DNA of 17,536 bases, taken from the UHGV virus genome UHGV-1676750; one strand, written 5' to 3'. Below the pieces are notes generated by a model that saw only the letters and a list, made by a program, of their open reading frames with translations, had not been told where the DNA came from and made no database searches. The stretch's first letter is position 1. Every line of letters starts with the position of its first letter. The DNA is from a virus. This document shows positions 2,809-15,557 of this stretch, piece by piece. The translations under genes and the position numbers were made by a program.

Positions 2809-2835
2809 AACAATTCGTAAAAGGATGTGATAAAA

Positions 2836-3201
2836 TTGAGCACAAAAAAACTGCAAGTTTTAGATTATAAAATTAAGCAGGCTGAAAACGCTGATACTGT
2901 AGATAATAAGCACGCTTCTGACTTCGCATCCGCTACTGATATGAGCACGGCGCAAAATAATATTAGCGACCTTCAGGCAAAAGTCGGAGATACGCCTGTA
3001 TCTACGCAAATTACAAATGCTATCTCTTCAAACCGTATAGTTTACGTTCAAAACGAAGAGCCAGTTGATGCACCACCTGGATCGCTATGGGTGAATTTAG
3101 AATTGCAAAATACGGATGACTTTGTATCTGTTTATAAAGAAATTTTAATATTTGGAATACAATACGTTGCGCTTGTTGATAGTGATACTTTGATAATATG
3201 A
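2836..3201 (+). CDS. Short tail-fibre-like protein with one VGDT module and an EP…PPGSLW motif
   Basis: Probable TTG start at 2836, 10 nt after AAGGA (2821-2825); the GTG at 2827 is too close to the RBS. Contains KVGDTPVSTQITNAI and EEPVDAPPGSLWVNLE. Confidence 0.6.
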   Translation: MSTKKLQVLDYKIKQAENADTVDNKHASDFASATDMSTAQNNISDLQAKVGDTPVSTQITNAISSNRIVYVQNEEPVDAPPGSLWVNLELQNTDDFVSVYKEILIFGIQYVALVDSDTLII

Positions 3202-3211
3202 GGTGATGATA

Positions 3212-4171
3212 ATGGCAGATATAAGTAAAATTAATATTAAGAATGAACAATATGATATTAAAGATAATATCGCACGAACACATATAGCGAGCACAAGTAA
3301 TCCTCATGGCGTTACAGCTGAACAGGTCGGTGCAAGACCTGATACATGGATGCCTACAGCTGAACAGGTCGGTGCCGTAACGCCTGCGGAACTCAACGCC
3401 GCCATCCGCAAAGCCGCCCCGAGGAATCTGCTGGACAATTCCGATTTCAGGAATCCGGTGAATCAGAGGGGGCAGACGACATACACAAATAACGGTTACA
3501 CGATTGATCGATGGGAGCTATACAGTGGATTGATTGGCGTTTCTTCGGATGGTTATGTATCCACTAATGGACAAATGTATCAGAAAATCGAAATCGCCAC
3601 GGATAAAGTATATACATTTGCGGTCAAAACTGCCGCTGGAATAGCGGCTGTTACGGGAATCCCGGCAAACGGCGCAATCAATCCAGCAACGATTGGCAAC
3701 GCCTTGATTAAACTTGCTACGATTGGAGAGTATGTGGAAGTGGTCATCGAACCGGCTGAAGGATTCGATTTTGCTGGAGCATACTGGGCAGCCCTGTACG
3801 AAGGCTCTTACACTGCGGATACCCTTCCGGAGTACAAGCCGAAGGGGTACGGCGCGGAGCTGGCGGAATGTCAGAGGTATTACCAGCAGTTTTTAAACAA
3901 TGCGTTTTTAGGTTGGGCGACTGTTGATGCAGATGGCATTAACTTTCAGGGAATGATTCCCTGCGGCAGTATGCGGATTAATTCCCCCACGATTCTTGGC
4001 GGAATCTCCGCATGGACAGGCTTGGTTTCAATTGGCGTTTCTTCAGTTACAGTCTTTAATTATCAGGGCAATGGGATGCGGATTAACGGGTGTTTGGCGA
4101 GCAGCACAACGGCTGGCAGTGTCATTGCGATTTATGCTGCGGAAACGGTTGCATTTTCCGCTGACCTGTAA
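3212..4171 (+). CDS. Tail-fibre protein with a GC-rich, probably horizontally exchanged, C-terminal domain
   Basis: ATG at 3212 after GAGGTG. N-terminal SNPHGVTAEQVGA…PTAEQVGA is a duplicated fibre-type motif. G+C rises sharply from about 3340 onward (67% counted for 3361-3420). Confidence 0.7.
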   Translation: MADISKINIKNEQYDIKDNIARTHIASTSNPHGVTAEQVGARPDTWMPTAEQVGAVTPAELNAAIRKAAPRNLLDNSDFRNPVNQRGQTTYTNNGYTIDRWELYSGLIGVSSDGYVSTNGQMYQKIEIATDKVYTFAVKTAAGIAAVTGIPANGAINPATIGNALIKLATIGEYVEVVIEPAEGFDFAGAYWAALYEGSYTADTLPEYKPKGYGAELAECQRYYQQFLNNAFLGWATVDADGINFQGMIPCGSMRINSPTILGGISAWTGLVSIGVSSVTVFNYQGNGMRINGCLASSTTAGSVIAIYAAETVAFSADL

Positions 4172-5261: not shown

Positions 5262-6152
5262 ATGGGAAGTGCTAGTGTATCCGCACCCACAACAGAGGGG
5301 ACTGTATTTGCATCAATAAGCTGGGATACTACTCCAACAGTATCTATAAGTATAACAGGCGGATATGGAATATCATGGAGAATTAGAGGTCGCGGAACAG
5401 ATACATATGTATATTATGGTCCAACAACTTCTTCGTCTGGTACGTTTACGGCAAGTTATGGAACAAGTTATGTACTTCAAGCAGTTAGCGACGGAGGATG
5501 GAATAATACTGGTGATAGTGTATTTACCGTCACGCAAGATGTTCACACTCACTCTTATTCTTTTTATACCACTGTTGACCCAACTTGTACTGAACAAGGT
5601 TATGAGATTTGGCGTTGTAGTGGTTGTGGTGATTTAGATTATAGAAATTATACTAACGCCCTTGGACATAACACTGTCAATACTGTTGTTACCCCGACCT
5701 GTACCGAACAAGGCTATACAACTCACATTTGCTCTCGTTGCGGAGCCACCACAAGCGCTAATGATAATTATACAAGTGCATTGGGCCACAATGATGCTAA
5801 TACTGTTGTTGCTCCAACTTGCACGGAACAAGGCTACACTAAGCATATTTGTTCCCGTTGTGGAATCACTATAAGTGCTAATGATAATTACATAAATGCT
5901 CTTGGACATGCGTGGGACGATGGTGAAATTATACTAGAACCAACTTATACCGAAGATGGAATTATAAAATATTTGTGTACAAGGTGCGGCGAAACTCGTA
6001 CAGAAGCTATAGCTAAAAAAGTTGGTTCGGTGCGTATTTATAACGGTTCAACTTTTGATATTTATAGTATCTATGTACGTGGAAAAGCGCAATCATGGGA
6101 TTTATATGTGCCGTACATATATAATGGATCAAGTTGGGATTTATATAGTTAG
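5262..6152 (+). CDS. Protein with four tandem ~40-aa Cys-rich (zinc-ribbon-like) repeats; putative binding or adhesin-type structural protein
   Basis: Repeats of H-x(9-11)-PTCTEQGY-x(4)-C-[ST]-x-CG-x(10-12)-ALG; the last copy is GHAWDDGEIILEPTYTEDGIIKYLCTRCGETRTEAI. Weak RBS; a 17-codon uORF (5209-5262) overlaps the start. Confidence 0.65.
   Translation: MGSASVSAPTTEGTVFASISWDTTPTVSISITGGYGISWRIRGRGTDTYVYYGPTTSSSGTFTASYGTSYVLQAVSDGGWNNTGDSVFTVTQDVHTHSYSFYTTVDPTCTEQGYEIWRCSGCGDLDYRNYTNALGHNTVNTVVTPTCTEQGYTTHICSRCGATTSANDNYTSALGHNDANTVVAPTCTEQGYTKHICSRCGITISANDNYINALGHAWDDGEIILEPTYTEDGIIKYLCTRCGETRTEAIAKKVGSVRIYNGSTFDIYSIYVRGKAQSWDLYVPYIYNGSSWDLYS
5544..6011 (+). repeat. Four tandem ~120-bp coding repeats (Cys-rich module) inside the 5262-6152 CDS
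   Basis: Units at roughly 5544-5666, 5667-5786, 5787-5906 and 5907-6011. Units 2 and 3 are clearly similar at nucleotide level (shared …CAAGGCTA… and …GCTAATGATAATTA… stretches). Confidence 0.7.
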
Positions 6153-6163
6153 GAGGTGAATAG

Positions 6164-6880
6164 ATGCCTCAGAACATCTTTAAAATCTATGATGGTAGAA
6201 CGAACTTTTGGCAATGGGACACTAAGCAGAAATTGATTGTTTTAGATGATCGTATTACAGAAGTTCGTTTTTCTAATAGAAATATGGAACACTCAAAACG
6301 TAGACCTGTCTACACGGACAATAATGGAGTTAGAATTTGTAATGTGCCTGATGTGCTCTTGCAACTTCCTAAGAATCTTATAGCGTATGCGTGTATTAAG
6401 CAAGACGATGGGACTTGTAGCACAGTAAAAGCGGTCAAGTTTGCAGTTGCTAGACAGCCAATTCCTGCGGATTATGTGTGTGAGCAAGATGCAGTTATTG
6501 AAAACATTCTCGCAAAGATCGAGATGCTTGAGAATTTACTCAAAGAAGTTGAGTCTGGATCAAAAGAAATGAAGAAGTTCACTAGCATGGTGGAAGCTGC
6601 ACAATGGGCCAAAGAAAATGGCAACGCTGGTGACATTGTTGTCATCAAACTTGATGTAGGTTGGGTGCCTCATGTTATTGAAGACGGCAAGAGTCTAAGC
6701 GCTATTTGCAACTGTGATGGCGATGAGATTGTTCTTCAGCTCGACGGAGATGACCCCGACGGCATTAATGAAGACGAAGAAGATATGGTTCTGTATTATG
6801 ACGGTAATTATATTGACGAAAGTAACGATGTAATTCAGTATTTTGATGGCGGTTCCGCATCTGGTTTACAAACGGGGTGA
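6164..6880 (+). CDS. Hypothetical phage protein (238 aa) with an acidic C-terminus
   Basis: ATG at 6164 with AGGAGGTGA at 6151-6159. No named motif. Confidence 0.7.
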   Translation: MPQNIFKIYDGRTNFWQWDTKQKLIVLDDRITEVRFSNRNMEHSKRRPVYTDNNGVRICNVPDVLLQLPKNLIAYACIKQDDGTCSTVKAVKFAVARQPIPADYVCEQDAVIENILAKIEMLENLLKEVESGSKEMKKFTSMVEAAQWAKENGNAGDIVVIKLDVGWVPHVIEDGKSLSAICNCDGDEIVLQLDGDDPDGINEDEEDMVLYYDGNYIDESNDVIQYFDGGSASGLQTG

Positions 6881-6884
6881 GAGA

Positions 6885-7244
6885 ATGGCCGATATAAGAA
6901 AAGTAAAAACTGTATTTCAAATCAGGCGCTCGACGACTGCGGAATGGGAAGCGAATAAAGATGCAATTCCTGATGCCGGAGAGCCCTGTTTTGATTTAGA
7001 CTTTGGTATATTAAAAATTGGTGATGGAAAGACCGCTTATAAAGACCTCAAGATTATTGGTGCTGGCGCTTCAATATCTGACGATGGTCTTTATTTAATT
7101 GTTGATAATTTGCAGAAAGATATCGATGAATTAAAGATCCGCATTGAAAATATTTCTGTTGAAGATCAAATTAATGATGCTATGAGCGATATTGTGGATG
7201 ACTCAGAATTACAGCAAACTCTGGATTCTGTGTTAAATAATTAA
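6885..7244 (+). CDS. Short fibre paralogue: HylP-like N-terminal attachment domain plus a short helical tail (possibly a truncated or minimal fibre)
   Basis: MADIRKVKTVFQIRRSTTAEWEANKDAIPDAGEPCFDLDFGILKIGDGKTAYKDLKIIG matches the conserved N-terminus of Gram-positive phage fibre/hyaluronidase (HylP) proteins: FQ/K-R-R…AEW…GE…D…KIGDG…Y…L. Confidence 0.7.
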   Translation: MADIRKVKTVFQIRRSTTAEWEANKDAIPDAGEPCFDLDFGILKIGDGKTAYKDLKIIGAGASISDDGLYLIVDNLQKDIDELKIRIENISVEDQINDAMSDIVDDSELQQTLDSVLNN

Positions 7245-7263
7245 GTTAAAGGAAGTGATGAAA

Positions 7264-8679
7264 ATGGCAATTAAAAAAATCAAGACATTGTTCCAACTCC
7301 GCAGGGGAACCACTGCCGAATGGGAACTCAATAAATCCGTAGTTCCCGCCGCTGGTGAACCGTGTTTTGATCTAGACCTTGGTACACTCAAAATTGGCGA
7401 CGGCGTTAAAACCTATGAGCAATTAGATGTAATTGGCGGCGGCAATGTAGCGCTTTCTGCCGATGGCAAGTCTATCATTTTGGATGACGGCATTTTTAAG
7501 CTTGCTGGTTTTGCCGATGCTGAAACTGGTGCTCAGCCTCGCAAGAACGCCGACGGCAATATTGAGTGGGTTGTACCTTCTAGCGAAACTCTTGATGGTC
7601 TACAGACAATTGTCGCTGGTTTACAAACTGACGTTACTGGATTGCAAACTAGCGTTGCTAGTATTCAGGAGGTTCTAGCTCCATCCGATGAAGGTGCAAT
7701 GACTCTACTAGAGAGAGTTGCCGCAATTGAGGGTAAGGTTGGCGAAAGCTCTGTTGATGAAAAAATTAACACTGCCTTTGACGACTTTATGGCAAAAGTT
7801 TCTGATGATGGCATCGTCAATACTGTCAAAGAACTAATTGACTATGTAGCAGACCATGCGCCCGAGGCCGCTCAGATGGCCGCTGATATTACTAGTCTGC
7901 AAGAACTTGTTGGTAACACCTCTGTTGATGCCCAAATTCTAGCTGCCATTACTACAAGCGAAGCAAAAACCGCTGCTCTTTACAAGAAAGTAAAATATGA
8001 GATTTCTTCTAAGCCCGCCGAAGCTTTAGTGGACTATAGAGAGAAAGAAATCAGAATTATGTGTCCCGCTGATACTCAATTTGAGCTTCAGAATGTTGGT
8101 CCTACTGGTGATTCTACTAGATACTATATTGGATTTAAGGCATATGCCCCTGATGGCGCTGTAAGCTTTAAGGAAGATACTAAGGCTACCATTGAAGATA
8201 CTACTATGTATTACTTTGAAGGCAATGATTTTGCTGGCACTGATGCTTATGGTCGTAAGTATAGTATTGTATGGCTACCTGTGGCAAAGCATAATGATGA
8301 TGATACTTGGACTTATTATGGTACTAATTCTAGTGCTGCCAAGTATATTGGCTGGTACTACTCTGTCGAGTGGTATGGTGCTAATGGTAAGGTTATTGCG
8401 TCTGATATCATTCGTATTAATCTAAGTAATGAGGCTTGCCATAATGTGGTTGAGCCTTATTTTATGGGCCAAGTTGTTAAGGGAGTTAGCGTTGGTGGAA
8501 CTCTGCTTGATTTGATTGACAATAAGGTTAATATTAATGCCAGTGATATTGTTAAAGGGTCTGATGAAATTGCGGTTGCTGAGGACGGGACTCTAAGCAT
8601 TGGCCAAATTAATGTGTCCAAGCTGGTGCAGGATGAAGGCTCCGAGCTAGTCTTTGATGGCGGCGGGGCTTCTAGATAA
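7264..8679 (+). CDS. Tail-fibre protein with a HylP-like N-terminal domain, GLQTxVx heptad repeats and VGxxSVD-x-x-I modules
   Basis: ATG at 7264, 8 nt after AAAGGAAG. N-terminus TLFQLRRGTTAEWELNKSVVPAAGEPCFDLDLGTLKIGDGVKTYEQL. Three 21-bp tandem heptad repeats at 7597-7659. Contains LVGNTSVDAQILAAI and KVGESSVDEKINTAF. Confidence 0.8.
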   Translation: MAIKKIKTLFQLRRGTTAEWELNKSVVPAAGEPCFDLDLGTLKIGDGVKTYEQLDVIGGGNVALSADGKSIILDDGIFKLAGFADAETGAQPRKNADGNIEWVVPSSETLDGLQTIVAGLQTDVTGLQTSVASIQEVLAPSDEGAMTLLERVAAIEGKVGESSVDEKINTAFDDFMAKVSDDGIVNTVKELIDYVADHAPEAAQMAADITSLQELVGNTSVDAQILAAITTSEAKTAALYKKVKYEISSKPAEALVDYREKEIRIMCPADTQFELQNVGPTGDSTRYYIGFKAYAPDGAVSFKEDTKATIEDTTMYYFEGNDFAGTDAYGRKYSIVWLPVAKHNDDDTWTYYGTNSSAAKYIGWYYSVEWYGANGKVIASDIIRINLSNEACHNVVEPYFMGQVVKGVSVGGTLLDLIDNKVNINASDIVKGSDEIAVAEDGTLSIGQINVSKLVQDEGSELVFDGGGASR

Positions 8680-8726: not shown

Positions 8727-10664
8727 ATGGCTATTGAAAAAACACTTAATACTCGTCTGAAACTTCGTTACGATTCTCATGAGAATTGGCTTGCTAATGA
8801 TCCTACTCTGCTTGCAGGCGAAGTCGCTCTAAGTGCTGTATCTGTTAAGCAGGACGGCGTAGTTAACGAAGTCCCCAGCGTACTAATTAAAGTTGGCGAT
8901 GGCACTCATAAGTATTCCGAACTAGATTATGCTTACGCGAGGGCGGCAGATGTCATCGAGCAGGCTAAGAGTGCAGAAAAGCTAACCGATTTCATCAACA
9001 ATGTAATTGCTAGTGCTGGTATTGCCACTGACGAGGCTCTAACTACTCTAGCTGGTAAGGTTACTACTGCCGAAGGCAAGATCACTGCTCTAGAAGGTCT
9101 AGTTGGCGATACTGCCGTAGCCACTCAGATTCAGAATAAGATTGATGCTCTGAAACTATCCGATACCTATGCCGCAAAGTCTCACACTCATACTAAGTCT
9201 GAGATTACTGATTTTGCGCATACTCATGTTATTGGTGATGTAACTGGTTTAAGCGATTCTATTGCTGAAGCTAAGCAGACTGGCCTTGACGCAACTTCTG
9301 CTCTTAATACTTATAAGAATACTAATGATGCTGCTGTAAAGGCCAATACTGATGCAATTGCTGCTATTAACAACGCTGACACTGGTATTCTTGCTCAGGC
9401 TAAGACTTATGCTGACGGAAAGGATGCCGCTATTACCGCTGCTAAGAATGCTGCTGATGCTGCTCAGGCTGACGTTGACGCCCTAGAAGCTAAGGTCGGC
9501 ACTGTCCCTGCAGATACCACTGTTGTCCAGATGATTGCTGACGCCCAGGATGCTGCTACTTATGATGACACTGCTCTAAAGGGTCGTGTAAGCGCAAACG
9601 AGACTGCTATTAGCAAGCTAAATGGGCTTGTCGGTGACACCGCTGTCGCCACTCAGATTAGCACTGCTGTTTCCGATGCTAAGACTGAGCTAAAGGGTAG
9701 CGCTTCCGATACCGATGCTTCTGCTACTATTGCTGGCGCTAAGAAGTATGCTGACAAGCTAGATGCTGCTATGGATGCTCGTGTTGATGCTCTAGAGGCT
9801 GCTGTTGGCGAAGATGGTTCTGTTGCAGAGAAGATCACTGCCGCAGTTGAAGCTCTTGACGCTACCGTTGAGACCGCTGCAATCCCAGAAGGTCAGGACG
9901 GTATTTATGTAAAGGTTACCGAGGTTGATGGTAAGCTAACTGCTGTTGAGGCTACTATCGAAGTATCTAATGAGATTAATGCTGCTAAGTCCGAGCTTGA
10001 GGACAAGATTGGTACTGTTGCCGAGGGTAAGACTCTTGCTGGTCTAATCGCTGACAATGCTGCCGCTATTGAGGCTCATAAGACTGCGGTCGATGCTAAG
10101 GTAACCACTCTAATTGGTGCTGATACCGACAAATCCGTGCGTACTATTGCTAATGAGGAACTGGCTGCTCAGCTGATTCCTGAGAACGCTAAGGAATCTC
10201 TAAATACCCTACAGGAGATCGCTGCTTGGATTCAGGCTCACCCCGATGATGCCGCTACAATGAATACGGCCATTGCAAACCTAAAGGCGCTAGTTGGTGA
10301 CGAAAGTGTTAACGCTCAGATTAATACTGCCGTTGACAACCTAAAGAATAACGAGATTAAGAACGCAACTGATCGCATTGCAGATCTAGAGGCTGATACT
10401 CACACTCATGCCAACAAGGCCCTGCTCGATTCTTACACTCAGACCGAAGCTGACCTGGCTGACGCCGTTGCTAAGAAGCACGAGCACGCTAATGCTACCG
10501 AACTGGCCAAGTTCGTTGAGGGTGATAAGGATAAGCTAGATGCCGCCGTTCAGACTGTTACCGCTGGCACTGGCCTCACCGCAACTAAGACTGGTACTGA
10601 TGTAGCTATTGGATTTGACGATACTGTCACTTTCGTGTTTGACTGCGGCGATAGCTCCATCTAA
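8727..10664 (+). CDS. Long tail-fibre protein: HylP-like N-terminus (variant), Ala-rich helical shaft, three VGD-x-x-V-x-x-QI modules and HTH/HxH motifs
   Basis: ATG at 8727 with AAGGAG at 8711-8716. Contains LVGDTAVATQIQNKI, LVGDTAVATQISTAV, LVGDESVNAQINTAV, SHTHTKSEITDFAHTHV and DTHTHANKALLDSY. G+C is visibly higher than in flanking AT-rich genes. Confidence 0.8.
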   Translation: MAIEKTLNTRLKLRYDSHENWLANDPTLLAGEVALSAVSVKQDGVVNEVPSVLIKVGDGTHKYSELDYAYARAADVIEQAKSAEKLTDFINNVIASAGIATDEALTTLAGKVTTAEGKITALEGLVGDTAVATQIQNKIDALKLSDTYAAKSHTHTKSEITDFAHTHVIGDVTGLSDSIAEAKQTGLDATSALNTYKNTNDAAVKANTDAIAAINNADTGILAQAKTYADGKDAAITAAKNAADAAQADVDALEAKVGTVPADTTVVQMIADAQDAATYDDTALKGRVSANETAISKLNGLVGDTAVATQISTAVSDAKTELKGSASDTDASATIAGAKKYADKLDAAMDARVDALEAAVGEDGSVAEKITAAVEALDATVETAAIPEGQDGIYVKVTEVDGKLTAVEATIEVSNEINAAKSELEDKIGTVAEGKTLAGLIADNAAAIEAHKTAVDAKVTTLIGADTDKSVRTIANEELAAQLIPENAKESLNTLQEIAAWIQAHPDDAATMNTAIANLKALVGDESVNAQINTAVDNLKNNEIKNATDRIADLEADTHTHANKALLDSYTQTEADLADAVAKKHEHANATELAKFVEGDKDKLDAAVQTVTAGTGLTATKTGTDVAIGFDDTVTFVFDCGDSSI

Positions 10665-10743: not shown

Positions 10744-11589
10744 ATGCCAAATAAAGAAATATTGGCCCGTGTCAAGCAAAAAAGAGATACGAGCGCTAAC
10801 TGGGAAGCACGAAATCCAGTTATTTTAAATGGCGAGATTATTCTCGTAGATACCAACGCAGGCGAGCTTAGAGCTAAAATTGGCGATGGTACAAAAACGT
10901 ATACTCAGCTACCTTTTTCAGATGAAGCTTTAAGAAGCCTCATCAATGCAAATAAGGTTACGGTAGATAGTGCGCTGTCTTCTACTAGTACCAATCCTGT
11001 ACAGAATAAAATTGTAAACGCCGCCATTAGCAACTTGAATACTTTGGTTGGTGATACCTCTATATCTTCTCAAATCGAAACTGCTGTTGCTTCAAAGCTC
11101 GACGCCGCAGATGCGACTTGGGCTCAGATTTATGATTCTGGCGCAATTACATCAGAAGTAAACTCTATTGCGGGCATTGATATCACAGGTTATAAGAGTC
11201 TAATGGTTGCTGTTAAGTGTGTAAACACTACGAATACCGCCAGTACAAGAGCTGGTGCGGTAATTTTTACTGGCAATAATCAAGACTATGCGTTTAATAA
11301 TCTTTTTAGCAACCTGATTAAAAATGGTACAACAACTTCCGGTGCTATGGCTAAATTTAAGATCGTGGACGGTTTTATTATTTGTGAGACTGCTATGAGA
11401 GCAATTACTGCGGATGGCATTTTATCTGATGCCGAAGGGGTAGGAATTGATACATTAGCCCCAGTAAGTAGTGGTCTTATTAAGTGTACAAACGCAGTCA
11501 CTACAATGGCCGTTTCTAGTGCGGCTCAGTCTGCAGACCATTACTACGGTGTTGGTAGTAGAGTTATTGTTTGGGGGTGTAAGGTATAA
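10744..11589 (+). CDS. Tail-fibre protein with a HylP-like N-terminal domain and one VGDT module
   Basis: N-terminus ILARVKQKRDTSANWEARNPVILNGEIILVDTNAGELRAKIGDGTKTYTQLPF. Contains LVGDTSISSQIETAVASKL. Confidence 0.8.
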   Translation: MPNKEILARVKQKRDTSANWEARNPVILNGEIILVDTNAGELRAKIGDGTKTYTQLPFSDEALRSLINANKVTVDSALSSTSTNPVQNKIVNAAISNLNTLVGDTSISSQIETAVASKLDAADATWAQIYDSGAITSEVNSIAGIDITGYKSLMVAVKCVNTTNTASTRAGAVIFTGNNQDYAFNNLFSNLIKNGTTTSGAMAKFKIVDGFIICETAMRAITADGILSDAEGVGIDTLAPVSSGLIKCTNAVTTMAVSSAAQSADHYYGVGSRVIVWGCKV

Positions 11590-12928: not shown

Positions 12929-14266
12929 ATGAAGAAGTTGACGCATGAAGAATTTATTGAGAAAGTAACGAAACTCAACGAACATGTTGCAAATGGTGAG
13001 ATAGAAATATTAAGTCAGTATATAAACCAAAGAACTAAAATTAAATGTAAATGTGCCATACATAATACTATATGGGAGAGATCGGTACAAAGCCTTTACG
13101 AAAATAGTGGTTGTGAAGATTGTAAATATGAATTAAGTGGAAGAAAAAGACGGTTTTCACATGAAGAATTTGTTGAAAAGATAAAGGTTTTAAATGATGA
13201 AATTATAGTTTTGGGACATTATACAACGATGAATAAATCAATTGAATTTCAATGTAAATTTGGTCATATATGGACAGCCAAGCCTTATAGCATTATCAAT
13301 GGGCATCAATGTCCATATTGTGCTGGGCAAAAACCTATAATTGGGAATAATGACTTATGGACAACAAGACCAGACGTTGCAAGTTTATTAAAAAATCGTG
13401 ATGACGGATATGGTTTGATGGAATTTAGTCAGCGTAAAGTAATATTTATTTGTCCAACATGCGGTAACGAAATCATAAAATCAGTTCAACGTGTATCAAT
13501 AGATGGGCTTGTTTGCCAAAGATGTTCTGATGGTGTATCATATCCGAATAAATTTGCAAGAGCATTTTTAAATCAACTACTTGGTAATAATTTTAAATGT
13601 GAGTATCAACCTGATTGGGCCAAACCATATTATTATGATAATTATTTTGAATATGGTAATAAGAAATATATTTTGGAGATGGATGGCAGTTTTCATTATA
13701 TTTCAAGACAGTTGACCAAACAGTCTCTTGATGAACGAAAAAGGATTGATGCATTAAAAGATAAACTTGCTGAGCAACATAATATTCGTGTTATTCGTAT
13801 AGAGTGTATAAAATCTAATTGTAATTACATAAAGAATAACATTTTACAATCCGAGTTGAGTTTAGTTTTTAATTTATCTAAGATTAATTGGGATTTATGC
13901 GACCAAATGGCGCAAAGAAGTTTGGTTAAAGATGTTTGTAATTTATATATGAACGGAATAAAAGATTTGCATAAAATAGCAGAAATATTGCATATTAGCA
14001 AAAGTACGGTATATGTATATTTGGTTAGAGGTTCTAAGTTTGGATGGTGTGATTACGATGGGAAGAATGCTCATTACTTGAAAATTTCTATTCCAATAAT
14101 TGTACTTGATGAAAATAACAATGCTATACATAAGTTTGATAGTATTAGTGCGTGCAAAGAAGAGATGAAAAAAATGTACGGATATTCATTTGATAGAAAT
14201 ACTTTGAAAAAAGCTTGTGAGTATTCTATTTCATATCATGGATTTAACTTTAAATATGCGTATTAA
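12929..14266 (+). CDS. Multi-domain homing-endonuclease-like protein: tandem zinc-ribbon modules, a Vsr/DUF559-like PD-(D/E)xK nuclease core, a helix-turn-helix and a NUMOD1-like C-terminal DNA-binding domain
   Basis: Two ~60-aa repeats ([TS]HEEF[IV]EK…LN…C-x-x-H…W…G-x-x-C-x-x-C) and a third CPTCG…CQRCS module. KKYILEMDGSFHYI…DERKRIDALKDKLAEQHNIRVIRIE resembles the DUF559/Vsr-like endonuclease motif. KIAEILHISKSTVYVYL is HTH-like. The C-terminus IPIIVLDENNNAIHKFDSISACKEEM…YHGFNFKY parallels the C-terminus of the GIY-YIG protein. Very AT-rich. RBS GGAGGT at 12915-12920. Confidence 0.65.
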   Translation: MKKLTHEEFIEKVTKLNEHVANGEIEILSQYINQRTKIKCKCAIHNTIWERSVQSLYENSGCEDCKYELSGRKRRFSHEEFVEKIKVLNDEIIVLGHYTTMNKSIEFQCKFGHIWTAKPYSIINGHQCPYCAGQKPIIGNNDLWTTRPDVASLLKNRDDGYGLMEFSQRKVIFICPTCGNEIIKSVQRVSIDGLVCQRCSDGVSYPNKFARAFLNQLLGNNFKCEYQPDWAKPYYYDNYFEYGNKKYILEMDGSFHYISRQLTKQSLDERKRIDALKDKLAEQHNIRVIRIECIKSNCNYIKNNILQSELSLVFNLSKINWDLCDQMAQRSLVKDVCNLYMNGIKDLHKIAEILHISKSTVYVYLVRGSKFGWCDYDGKNAHYLKISIPIIVLDENNNAIHKFDSISACKEEMKKMYGYSFDRNTLKKACEYSISYHGFNFKYAY

Positions 14267-14336: not shown

Positions 14337-15557
14337 ATGTCTAACCCCAATTTCAATCCTACGTATAGCTCGAACTTAATTTGGAGAGATGAAGACGACA
14401 CTCGTTGTATTACTGATGACCTAGATAATATCGAATCCGACATCACTGCACTCGAAACAGGCAAGGCCGACACTAACCATACACATACCGGATATGCTAC
14501 TACAGATCACACTCATACAGGCTACGCCGCAGCAGATCATACCCACACTGGCTATGCGGCGGCTGCAGACGTAACTACACTACAAAATTTGGTTGGAGAC
14601 ACTAGTGTATCTTCTCAGATCAGTACGGCTATTGCGGGCAAGGTTGATGCTGTGGAAGGTAAAGGCTTGTCTACCAATGACTATACGACAGCCGAGAAGA
14701 ATAAGCTTACTGGAATTGATACAGGAGCTAACAATTATGTGCTTCCAACTGCAAGCAGCACTACTCTTGGCGGTATTAAAACTGGGGATAACATTACTAA
14801 TTCGTCTGGTACGATTAGTCTAACAAAAAGCAATGTCACGTCAGCTTTAGGATATACTCCATTTGGCAGTAGTACGTTGTCAATGGCCAATGGTGGTACT
14901 GGCAGCGCTCAGGTTGTTAATGCTCCAAAGAATGCCATATTGAAGAAGGCAAACGATGGGAACTATGTGTGGTATACTCAGACAAAAAGTGGGGCTTTCT
15001 ACGCTACTGCAACAGATGGAGTTCCGAAATTCGGTGTACTGCCCAAGGCATTAGGTGGCACAGGTGCGGATTTCAGTAATATTCCAGCTAATGCTATTAT
15101 TCGTAATTCTGGTTCTGGCGGTAGTGACTTGTACTATTTTGCAACTGGCAATGGGGCATGCTATGCCACATCAGCTAATGGGTATCCGACTTTTGGTACA
15201 TTGCCCGTAGCGCAAGGTGGCACTGGCGAAACTACTGCTTGGACAAATGGTACAGTTACGAGTTTGAATAGTACTACTATTACATCATACCAATTTGCTG
15301 TTTTCCCCTATTTAAATAAGGCATTTATTAGGCTTAATGTGCTATTAGGTAGTGCTTTAGATGCTGACGAAGCTAGATATATAGTAATGCCGTCAACTGT
15401 TGCAACTGCACATACTGCTTTGTCTTGCTTTAATATTGCTGGATATGATATTCATTGTGGTATGGCTAGCGATAGTGGCATTTATGTAATTAATTGTGGT
15501 ACTGCTTCAATGCCCAATACTGTACGTCTTTATATTGCGGGATGGTATTCAATCTAA
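14337..15557 (+). CDS. Tail-fibre protein with an HTHTGYA triple repeat, one VGDT module and repeated GGTG motifs
   Basis: ATG at 14337 with AAGGAGG at 14321-14327; the track ORF from 14217 overlaps the upstream gene and lacks an RBS. Contains NHTHTGYATTDHTHTGYAAADHTHTGYAAA, LVGDTSVSSQISTAIAGKV, and three L-x-x-x-GGTG motifs (MANGGTGSA, PKALGGTGAD, PVAQGGTGET). Confidence 0.8.
   Translation: MSNPNFNPTYSSNLIWRDEDDTRCITDDLDNIESDITALETGKADTNHTHTGYATTDHTHTGYAAADHTHTGYAAAADVTTLQNLVGDTSVSSQISTAIAGKVDAVEGKGLSTNDYTTAEKNKLTGIDTGANNYVLPTASSTTLGGIKTGDNITNSSGTISLTKSNVTSALGYTPFGSSTLSMANGGTGSAQVVNAPKNAILKKANDGNYVWYTQTKSGAFYATATDGVPKFGVLPKALGGTGADFSNIPANAIIRNSGSGGSDLYYFATGNGACYATSANGYPTFGTLPVAQGGTGETTAWTNGTVTSLNSTTITSYQFAVFPYLNKAFIRLNVLLGSALDADEARYIVMPSTVATAHTALSCFNIAGYDIHCGMASDSGIYVINCGTASMPNTVRLYIAGWYSI
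14475..14564 (+). repeat. Three tandem 30-bp coding repeats, each encoding [ND]HTHTGYA-x-x
   Basis: aaccatacacataccggatatgctactaca / gatcacactcatacaggctacgccgcagca / gatcatacccacactggctatgcggcggct. Confidence 0.75.

Follow-up and report, generated by a model that had tools for sequence, protein, structure and literature searches.

What holds together four cysteine-rich repeats in a protein encoded among the fibre genes of a phage, and what purpose do they serve? The question is raised by UHGV virus genome UHGV-1676750, of which a stretch of 17,536 nucleotides (nt), here called the window, was analysed, and specifically by a gene in it that encodes a protein of 296 amino acids (aa). Here we present an analysis of this protein, its orthologues and the family to which its repeats belong. 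We consider it probable, if well short of certain, that the product is a virion-module protein whose middle is a rigid rod stapled by metal ions, with a length set by the number of units, that serves as a spacer. In this arrangement four small three-stranded β-sheet units would stand end to end, each junction clamped by one tetrahedrally coordinated ion, most likely Zn2+, for which the preceding unit would provide the Cys of its "PTC" loop and the following unit its CxxC knuckle, the remaining ligand being the His of the "GH" linker. The evidence consists of the repeat anatomy, homology, predicted fold, covariation and register of the ligands, and natural copy-number variants that we observed.

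Architecture of the repeat protein

The four head-to-tail units span residues 95-250 (nt 5544-6011), exactly where an initial annotation of the DNA had placed four tandem Cys-rich repeats of ~40 aa; they are 36-40 aa long and score 39-56 bits each against a repeat hidden Markov model. That annotation had also read Cys at fixed positions in each repeat. The positions are indeed conserved in homologues; there are three Cys in each of units 1-3, whereas unit 4, in which Tyr229 (nt 5946-5948) occupies the slot of the first Cys, is left with two. The N-terminal sequence shows no evident signal peptide, and there is no anchor either. The full-length AlphaFold2 (AF2) model has a mean predicted local distance difference test score (pLDDT) of 83 and a predicted template modelling score (pTM) of 0.47; by region, pLDDT is 90-97 in the repeats, linkers included, 72-86 in the N-terminal domain and 44-69 in the C-terminal tail. 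Each unit is predicted as a three-stranded antiparallel sheet (in unit 1, strands 99-105/113-119/125-131), and a two-unit model (aa 133-215, from a 93-row alignment) reached pLDDT 94, again with three strands per unit and with the linker confidently placed. A Foldseek search of the full-length model against the PDB gave generic multi-Ig/FN3 chains only (TM ≤ 0.24) and was uninformative.

An identical protein, P0001, is encoded on an ENA metagenome contig, and further orthologues, P0002-P0005 (255-304 aa), on other metagenome contigs, one of which is labelled as a pig-gut catalogue sample. Comparison by region showed that the N-terminal domain is the most divergent part (42-66% identity across orthologues) and the C-terminal tail the most conserved (89-100% within P0001-P0004). 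Pfam and PHROG scans with the N-terminal domain (aa 1-94) returned no match. A profile of the tail, searched against 5.8 billion proteins, retrieved one additional fragment only, and the tail is limited to this phage lineage. Within the lineage it is a portable C-terminal module, because a different, 5'-truncated open reading frame (ORF; 3-269), two genes upstream on the related contig L005, also terminates in this tail ([IY]xNG[ST]xWDxY).

Proposed position of the metal site

According to the strand order of the AF2 models, β1 and β2 are connected by the PTC loop and β2 and β3 by the CxxC knuckle, and the GH linker comes after β3. In such a three-strand meander, loop and knuckle are predicted to lie at opposite ends of the sheet, and a complete site would therefore need two units, n-1 for the first Cys and n for the CxxC, with the linker His as the remaining ligand. 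A site of this kind predicts three patterns, concerning compensation by His, the ends of arrays and the starts of arrays, and all three were found.

Covariation was analysed in ~6,500 units, comprising 665 units of 119 proteins (set 1) and, independently, 5,815 units of 150 giant proteins (set 2). In set 1, a second His was present in 32 of 58 units that follow a unit without the first Cys, versus 19 of 446 where that Cys is present. The first Cys was absent from 89 of 145 last-of-array units versus 58 of 504 internal units, and an HxH or second His was found in 40 of 106 first-of-array units. The same second-His coupling was seen in set 2, where, in addition, the second knuckle Cys of unit n tends to be missing when unit n-1 lacks the first Cys.

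For a control of register, the count was restricted to units having both neighbours. When the first Cys was scored in the previous unit (n-1), a second His was found in 27/48 versus 11/322 units of set 1 (odds ratio (OR) 36) and in 54/228 versus 221/4126 units of set 2 (OR 5.5); the second CxxC Cys was lost in 107/228 versus 129/4126 units of set 2 (OR 27), with an OR of 5.8 in set 1. When it was scored in the same unit (n), the ORs for sets 1 and 2 were 0.6 and 1.3 for the second His and 2.7 and 1.1 for loss of the knuckle Cys; in the next unit (n+1) they were 2.3 and 0.9, and 1.5 and 0.8, respectively. We take this covariation to be decisive for the Cys of the previous unit, the same-unit and next-unit controls being without effect. 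A His three residues ahead of the knuckle was considered as the main compensator and rejected, as it is rare (8/154 first-Cys-less units) and never follows a Cys-less predecessor; HxH is the main route.

The register bears directly on the simplest reading of a Cys-rich repeat, in which the units are classical zinc ribbons or knuckles, each independent and supplying His, first Cys and CxxC from within, and the array is a set of beads on a flexible string. Zinc ribbons such as the TFIIS C-terminal domain and archaeal RpoM/TFS4 do share the three-stranded antiparallel sheet and CxxC knuckle; weak, sub-threshold matches to TFS4/RpoM, Zn_ribbon families and zf-CHY were obtained (marginal examples being 7oqy_Y (RpoM), E = 0.079 in a single-sequence PDB search, and NF047723, E = 2.6e-4); and one subdomain of the bacterial IgA protease discussed below has been said to resemble distantly the TFIIS zinc ribbon (PMC12237041). 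The ribbons, however, are intracellular nucleic-acid or polymerase factors with two knuckles and four ligands in one domain, whereas each window unit has one CxxC knuckle and would draw a half-site from its neighbour. Compensation and loss follow the Cys of the previous unit and not that of the unit itself, the strand order of the two-unit AF2 model would put the PTC loop and knuckle at opposite sheet ends, the last unit is short of a Cys and the first has an extra His, and the best Pfam scores are 10-18 bits against cut-offs of 25-33 (21 bits against 120 for the NCBIfam TFS4 model). Self-contained ribbons are accordingly judged very unlikely.

More improbable still is that the Cys form disulfides stabilising small extracellular modules. 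The modules are small, Cys-rich and, after lysis, extracellular, but the Cys number 11, an odd count, with three per unit, and their conserved partner is a His. Furthermore, Cys are swapped for His instead of being lost pairwise, the ligands of whole sites disappear jointly, the repeat is carried by strict gut anaerobes, and no disulfide was seen or predicted in the IgA protease despite its 24 Cys (PMC12237041). The phage protein is expected to fold in the reducing cytoplasm, because it has no signal peptide. Thus, of the "small zinc-ribbon or disulfide-stabilised module" of the initial annotation, the metal is favoured (His and Cys ligands, 11 Cys, Cys-to-His compensation), but neither disulfides nor self-contained ribbons are, the tetrad apparently spanning two units.

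Applied to the window protein, the inter-unit rule places all 11 Cys and 5 His in four complete tetrads (S1-S4, Table 1), and the residues of S2 are almost invariant in alignment A1. That unit 1 begins with HxH and unit 4 has a Tyr can be understood if the site spans neighbouring units: at the first junction, where no unit precedes, a second His would replace the Cys, and in the last unit the PTC Cys would be superfluous and could be replaced by Tyr. Among the orthologues, the HxH start is found in 4/5 and a last unit without this Cys in 5/5 (Y, Y, Y, Y, H). The metal is most likely Zn2+, judging from the type of ligands and the published assignment, and iron, in a rubredoxin-like site, is also compatible with the sequence. 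The covariation provides sequence-based support, from thousands of units, for a metal that bridges neighbours, which would make the array a rod. In addition, the rules of an HxH at array starts and a free first-Cys slot at array ends can be used for domain boundaries, family curation and construct design.

Two further features of the knuckle were noted. The position two residues before its first Cys (H155, H195, W117 and Y237 in the window), which lies outside the tetrad, is H in 30%, Y in 28% and F in 8% of units; these residues may shield the metal site or serve as an alternative ligand. Also, some units of the family have "C-x-N-D-x-x-H" in place of CxxC.

The repeat family and its closest described relative

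Scans of the 296-aa protein and its homologues against Pfam, NCBIfam and PHROG gave no repeat family above threshold, and a literature search for the repeat motif strings found nothing. Precomputed PF07874 (DUF1660) flags on some homologues were not reproduced on rescan. A first homology search yielded 179 proteins, of which all but the five orthologues match in the repeats only; these are extracellular proteins with SLH, dockerin, cohesin, LRR_5, CAP, GH25, InlB-B, Big_2 or LPXTG. The resemblance to Firmicutes surface proteins that the initial annotation had suggested is thereby confirmed. A two-unit profile (alignment A3) was then searched against 1.84 billion cluster representatives (50%-identity clusters) and matched 71,944 proteins at E = 1e-3, 46,953 at 1e-10 and 17,406 at 1e-30, the matches reaching 7,583 aa and 50 or more matched stretches. 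Among the matches listed (at least 600, in species-representative genomes), Clostridia of gut and rumen predominate overwhelmingly, with Oscillospiraceae, Ruminococcus, Lachnospiraceae, Faecousia and Acutalibacteraceae, and Erysipelotrichaceae occur in addition. The repeat is thus among the commonest uncatalogued modules in extracellular proteins of these Clostridia, and it has neither a Pfam or NCBIfam model nor a solved structure. Giant proteins of 3,000-7,500 aa (P0121-P0270) are largely built of it, one of them having up to 68 matched double-unit stretches; if rod-like, they would give gut Clostridia surface filaments of great length.

Against PDB sequences, the A3 profile had one convincing match, 9qa6_A (E = 3e-7), the M64 IgA protease (IgAse) of Thomasclavelia ramosa (UniProt Q9AES2). 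Its stretches 845-884, 921-978 and 1090-1135 share H-x-W...[AP]-T-x-T-x-x-G-x5-C-x2-C, each with a modest E of 0.014-1.2. On this homology, the closest described relative of the repeat appears to be the predicted zinc-binding domains ZBD1/ZBD2 of IgAse (CTD2/CTD4, β3-β6). CTD2 and CTD4 have been described as an "uncharacterized periscope domain fold" with sheets joined by zinc pockets, and small-angle X-ray scattering of isolated CTD2 indicated a fully extended rod (PMC12415215); CTD2/CTD4 were likewise unresolved in a second paper (PMC12402451), and sites of 2His+2Cys were predicted in a third (PMC12237041). S1, with 2His+2Cys, corresponds to the latter.

The window units share with the IgAse domains their homology, tandem three-strand sheets of ~35-40 aa (by AF2) and tetrads between subdomains, the last indicated here by covariation and not by geometry. 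For neither is there an experimental atomic structure, and the metal sites are predicted in both. The two differ in setting, since IgAse is a sortase-anchored bacterial enzyme in which the units form a stalk interspersed with other domains, whereas the phage units belong to a small protein without signal peptide, are flanked by a unique N-terminal domain and tail, and are encoded in a fibre cluster. They also differ in site type, which is mostly 3Cys+1His in the window units and mostly 2His+2Cys in those of IgAse. The phage repeat is therefore not a new kind but a member of a very large, uncurated family that was first described in 2025, so far only as a prediction and in papers on a single enzyme. 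New here are its presence in a phage fibre-cluster protein, the evidence on the register of the inter-unit metal site, and the natural 3- and 4-unit alleles described below.

Function of the array

Many unrelated functional domains adjoin the repeat, and dozens of matched stretches may occur in one protein, as would be expected of a spacer. In the phage protein the rod would hold apart a fast-evolving N-terminal β-domain, as the displayed and possibly host-contacting end, and a highly conserved, lineage-specific tail that would dock on the virion or oligomerise. From strands of 6-9 residues, we estimate a unit length of ~2-3 nm and ~8-12 nm for four units.

The suggestion of the initial annotation that the repeats form a carbohydrate- or surface-binding array can be put as an adhesin- or lectin-like array on host cell-wall or mucosal glycans, in which copy number would tune avidity and not length. 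The location of the gene in a fibre-rich cluster is in keeping with this, as are the homologous repeats in surface proteins with adhesin-type LRR_5, InlB B-repeat and Big_2 domains and the strong conservation of a motif without ligands, T-E-Q-G-Y-T-T; moreover, extra functions of CTD2/4 were left open by the authors of the IgAse study (PMC12415215). On the other hand, library and profile searches matched no carbohydrate-binding or adhesin family, conservation falls on ligands, Gly, Pro-Thr and β-formers, and the units, as single-layer sheets, have no core that could form a pocket (PMC12415215). The unit also accompanies enzymes, SLH, dockerin and proteases, and a single protein may have as many as 68 matched stretches; the domains of IgAse are dispensable and even hinder catalysis in vitro (PMC12237041). 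The only studied homologue is thus a rod-like, dispensable spacer (PMC12415215, PMC12237041), the partner domains of the family are unrelated to one another, and we regard a binding array as unlikely.

Likewise, we see little probability, less than for a binding array, in the metal sites being an environmental switch or intermolecular bridges, by analogy with the zinc-dependent association of Aap/SasG, instead of purely structural staples. Cys and His are predicted to occupy every coordination position of the sites (PMC12415215), and all four window sites are complete tetrads.

A metal-stapled rod on a virion protein would have a counterpart in the Ig-like accessory domains (Big_2/FN3/I-set; T4 Hoc) that Fraser et al. 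reportedly described on phage virion proteins in 2006. Both are host-type extracellular modules on phage structural proteins, often combining a conserved virion-binding end with displayed variable domains, and an exposed N-terminal domain in the window protein would match the polarity of T4 Hoc. The Hoc-type domains differ in having another fold and no metal sites, and for the phage protein studied here a display or adhesion role is only presumed.

Several points weigh against the reading of a metal-stapled spacer. Fisher p-values are inflated by related sequences, although the same-unit and next-unit controls carry equal bias, and ~30% of the units after a Cys-less unit (75/247) have neither compensation nor loss of the site. 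The inter-unit position is deduced from strand topology, covariation and published AF2 descriptions; rigidity and spacer role are extrapolated from one bacterial protein; presence in the virion, the structure to which the protein attaches and its distal end are all putative; and the pTM of the full-length AF2 model is only 0.47. Finally, the evidence on copy-number variants is from metagenome assemblies, and the P0004 allele, found on a single contig, is possibly an assembly artefact.

A bolder extension, which we put forward as speculative and doubtful, is that a gut-phage lineage took over the surface-stalk module of its Clostridial host as a ruler. Whole-unit recombination would then set the reach of a variable N-terminal binding domain from the virion to match the thickness of the S-layer or surface-protein coat of the host, so that repeat number would be a host-range determinant, and the inter-unit staple would define a very large, uncurated and structurally unsolved class of metal-dependent extracellular rods of >70,000 clusters. 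If true, the surface architecture of gut anaerobes would be tied to zinc availability. The 3- and 4-unit alleles of a protein of only 296 aa offer a compact system in which metal content, rigidity and rod length could be related to infection.

Copy-number variation

The initial annotation had proposed a comparison of repeat number between related genomes, and the number does vary, with four units in the window protein, P0003 and P0005 and three in P0002 and P0004. The genes of P0003 and P0004 have ~99% DNA identity except for one in-frame, in-register indel of 117 nt. P0004 has a chimeric unit: its 5' half derives from unit 2, its 3' half from unit 3, and the two meet at CAGGG, a 5-nt microhomology, within the PTCTE|QGY codons. 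In-register recombination in a 4-unit ancestor appears to have deleted a unit to give this allele, with the remaining metal sites intact. Recombination of this kind would shift the rod from four units to three, making it about a quarter shorter, without breaking a metal site. At least two independent assemblies contain P0003, which has four units, and at least two contain P0002, which has three.

Between units 2 and 3, DNA identity is 73% with a longest exact run of 14 nt, other pairs of units being ~50% identical; the 40 codons of units 2 and 3 comprise 14 identical ones, 18 with synonymous and 8 with non-synonymous differences. Tandem Repeats Finder reported no repeat at 5544-6011, and a period of 120 nt was picked up by a second repeat search. 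The DNA repeats are thus old. Of the two routes to copy-number change that had been suggested, slippage is unlikely, because the DNA repeats have diverged (73% identity, with Tandem Repeats Finder silent), and in-register recombination at the 5-nt microhomology is the probable route of unit loss.

A change in the number of whole repeats among close relatives is reportedly typical of the periscope proteins of Whelan et al. (PNAS, 2021; cited also in PMC12415215), for which the E-G5 rods of SasG/Aap serve as comparison, and the 3- versus 4-unit orthologues follow that pattern. Periscope proteins differ in having long, near-identical DNA arrays on a cell-wall-anchored protein; here there are four diverged units and no anchor.

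Genomic context

As the initial annotation had supposed, the gene lies in a structural module: the neighbourhood is a fibre-rich phage structural region with all genes on the + strand, including Mtd_N fibres, tail-fibre PHROGs, and XkdX-like and head-fibre-like genes (Table 1).

Table 1. Positions in the window of the repeat-protein gene, its domains, the proposed metal sites and neighbouring genes. Numbers in brackets after ligand residues are codon starts.
Feature	Position	Strand	Remarks
Repeat-protein gene, 296 aa	5262..6152	+	stop codon 6150-6152; GGTGA precedes start
N-terminal domain, aa 1-94	5262..5543	+	all-β, ~9 strands predicted (AF2)
Unit 1, aa 95-134 (40 aa)	5544-5663	+	HTHSYSFYTTVDPTCTEQGYEIWRCSGCGDLDYRNYTNAL; HxH start
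Unit 2, aa 135-174 (40 aa)	5664-5783	+	GHNTVNTVVTPTCTEQGYTTHICSRCGATTSANDNYTSAL
Unit 3, aa 175-214 (40 aa)	5784-5903	+	GHNDANTVVAPTCTEQGYTKHICSRCGITISANDNYINAL
Unit 4, aa 215-250 (36 aa)	5904-6011	+	GHAWDDGEIILEPTYTEDGIIKYLCTRCGETRTEAI; "GHxWDxG" subtype
C-terminal tail, aa 251-296	6012..6149	+	repeated [IY]xNG[ST]x[WF]DxY motifs
Inferred metal site S1	5544..5627	+	His95 (5544), His97 (5550), Cys119 (5616), Cys122 (5625); by inter-unit rule
Inferred metal site S2	5586..5741	+	Cys109 (5586) of unit 1; His136 (5667), Cys157 (5730), Cys160 (5739) of unit 2
Inferred metal site S3	5700..5861	+	Cys147 (5700) of unit 2; His176 (5787), Cys197 (5850), Cys200 (5859) of unit 3
Inferred metal site S4	5820..5987	+	Cys187 (5820) of unit 3; His216 (5907), Cys239 (5976), Cys242 (5985) of unit 4
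Tail-fibre PHROG	3203-4171	+
CD1375/XkdX-like gene, 43 aa	4604-4735	+
Mtd_N fibre N-domains	6843-7244, 7255-8679, 10744-11589	+
645-aa fibre	8727-10664	+
Head-fibre-like gene	~14337-15557	+
Virion structural proteins	both window ends	+

The orthologue loci have a common gene order, namely an XkdX/CD1375-like gene, a 140-162-aa gene, the repeat gene, a 217-238-aa gene and an Mtd_N fibre. The repeat gene is thus a conserved component of this phage lineage, because the order is the same at each locus. When the 296-aa protein was examined for homology to fibre, receptor-binding or virion-protein families, there was no Pfam match and the lone PHROG match was weak (phrog_30439, of unknown function); it is the genomic position that points to a virion role.

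Searches of INPHARED with the DNA of the region and with three window proteins found no relatives, and two unannotated faecal phage records there match the 296-aa protein in the repeats only. A scan of IMG/VR with the whole 296-aa protein gave no match. With a consensus two-unit peptide 78 loci were found, the dominant carriers being proteins of ~990 aa and ~18 units amid transposases and not virion genes. This protein is prevalent on human-gut "viral" contigs (L017 5023-7992 and ~50 similar IMG/VR loci), with transposases and an HD phosphohydrolase in its flanks. Such carriers may be cargo or host DNA on "viral" contigs and are uninformative on the structural use of the repeat by phages. A search of BFVD returned two uncultured-virus entries, their names derived from SLH and LRR domains.

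Other features of the structural module were noted. Two free-standing homing-endonuclease genes lie within it, a GIY-YIG gene (1006-1833) and an HNH gene (12929-14266). The possibility that the HNH endonuclease splits the head-fibre-like gene was rejected, as that gene is intact from ~14340 and the HNH gene is an intergenic insertion; the syntenic locus L003 has no HNH gene, and there the head-fibre-like gene comes immediately after an 80-aa gene.

The 133-aa ORF at 6843-7244, which overlaps the end of the 238-aa gene, has an Mtd_N domain that shares 58% identity with the N-terminal end of the 474-aa fibre next to it (7255-8679). It looks like a duplicated fibre N-terminal fragment, because the relatives L001 and L003 are without this ORF.

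A 128-aa ORF (1885-2271) that adjoins the GIY-YIG endonuclease gene is rich in Cys at its N-terminus (CLCCSTRYSYCPSCSN...CSETC) and matched no family; its product is a putative metal-binding protein, unrelated to the repeat protein. Additionally, short segments of the "VGDTxVSxQI" type are found in at least six ORFs (2578-2808, 2827-3201, 7255-8679, 8727-10664, 10744-11589 and 14337-15557), with several copies within the 645-aa fibre, which suggests a common coiled or fibrous repeat exchanged between fibre genes.

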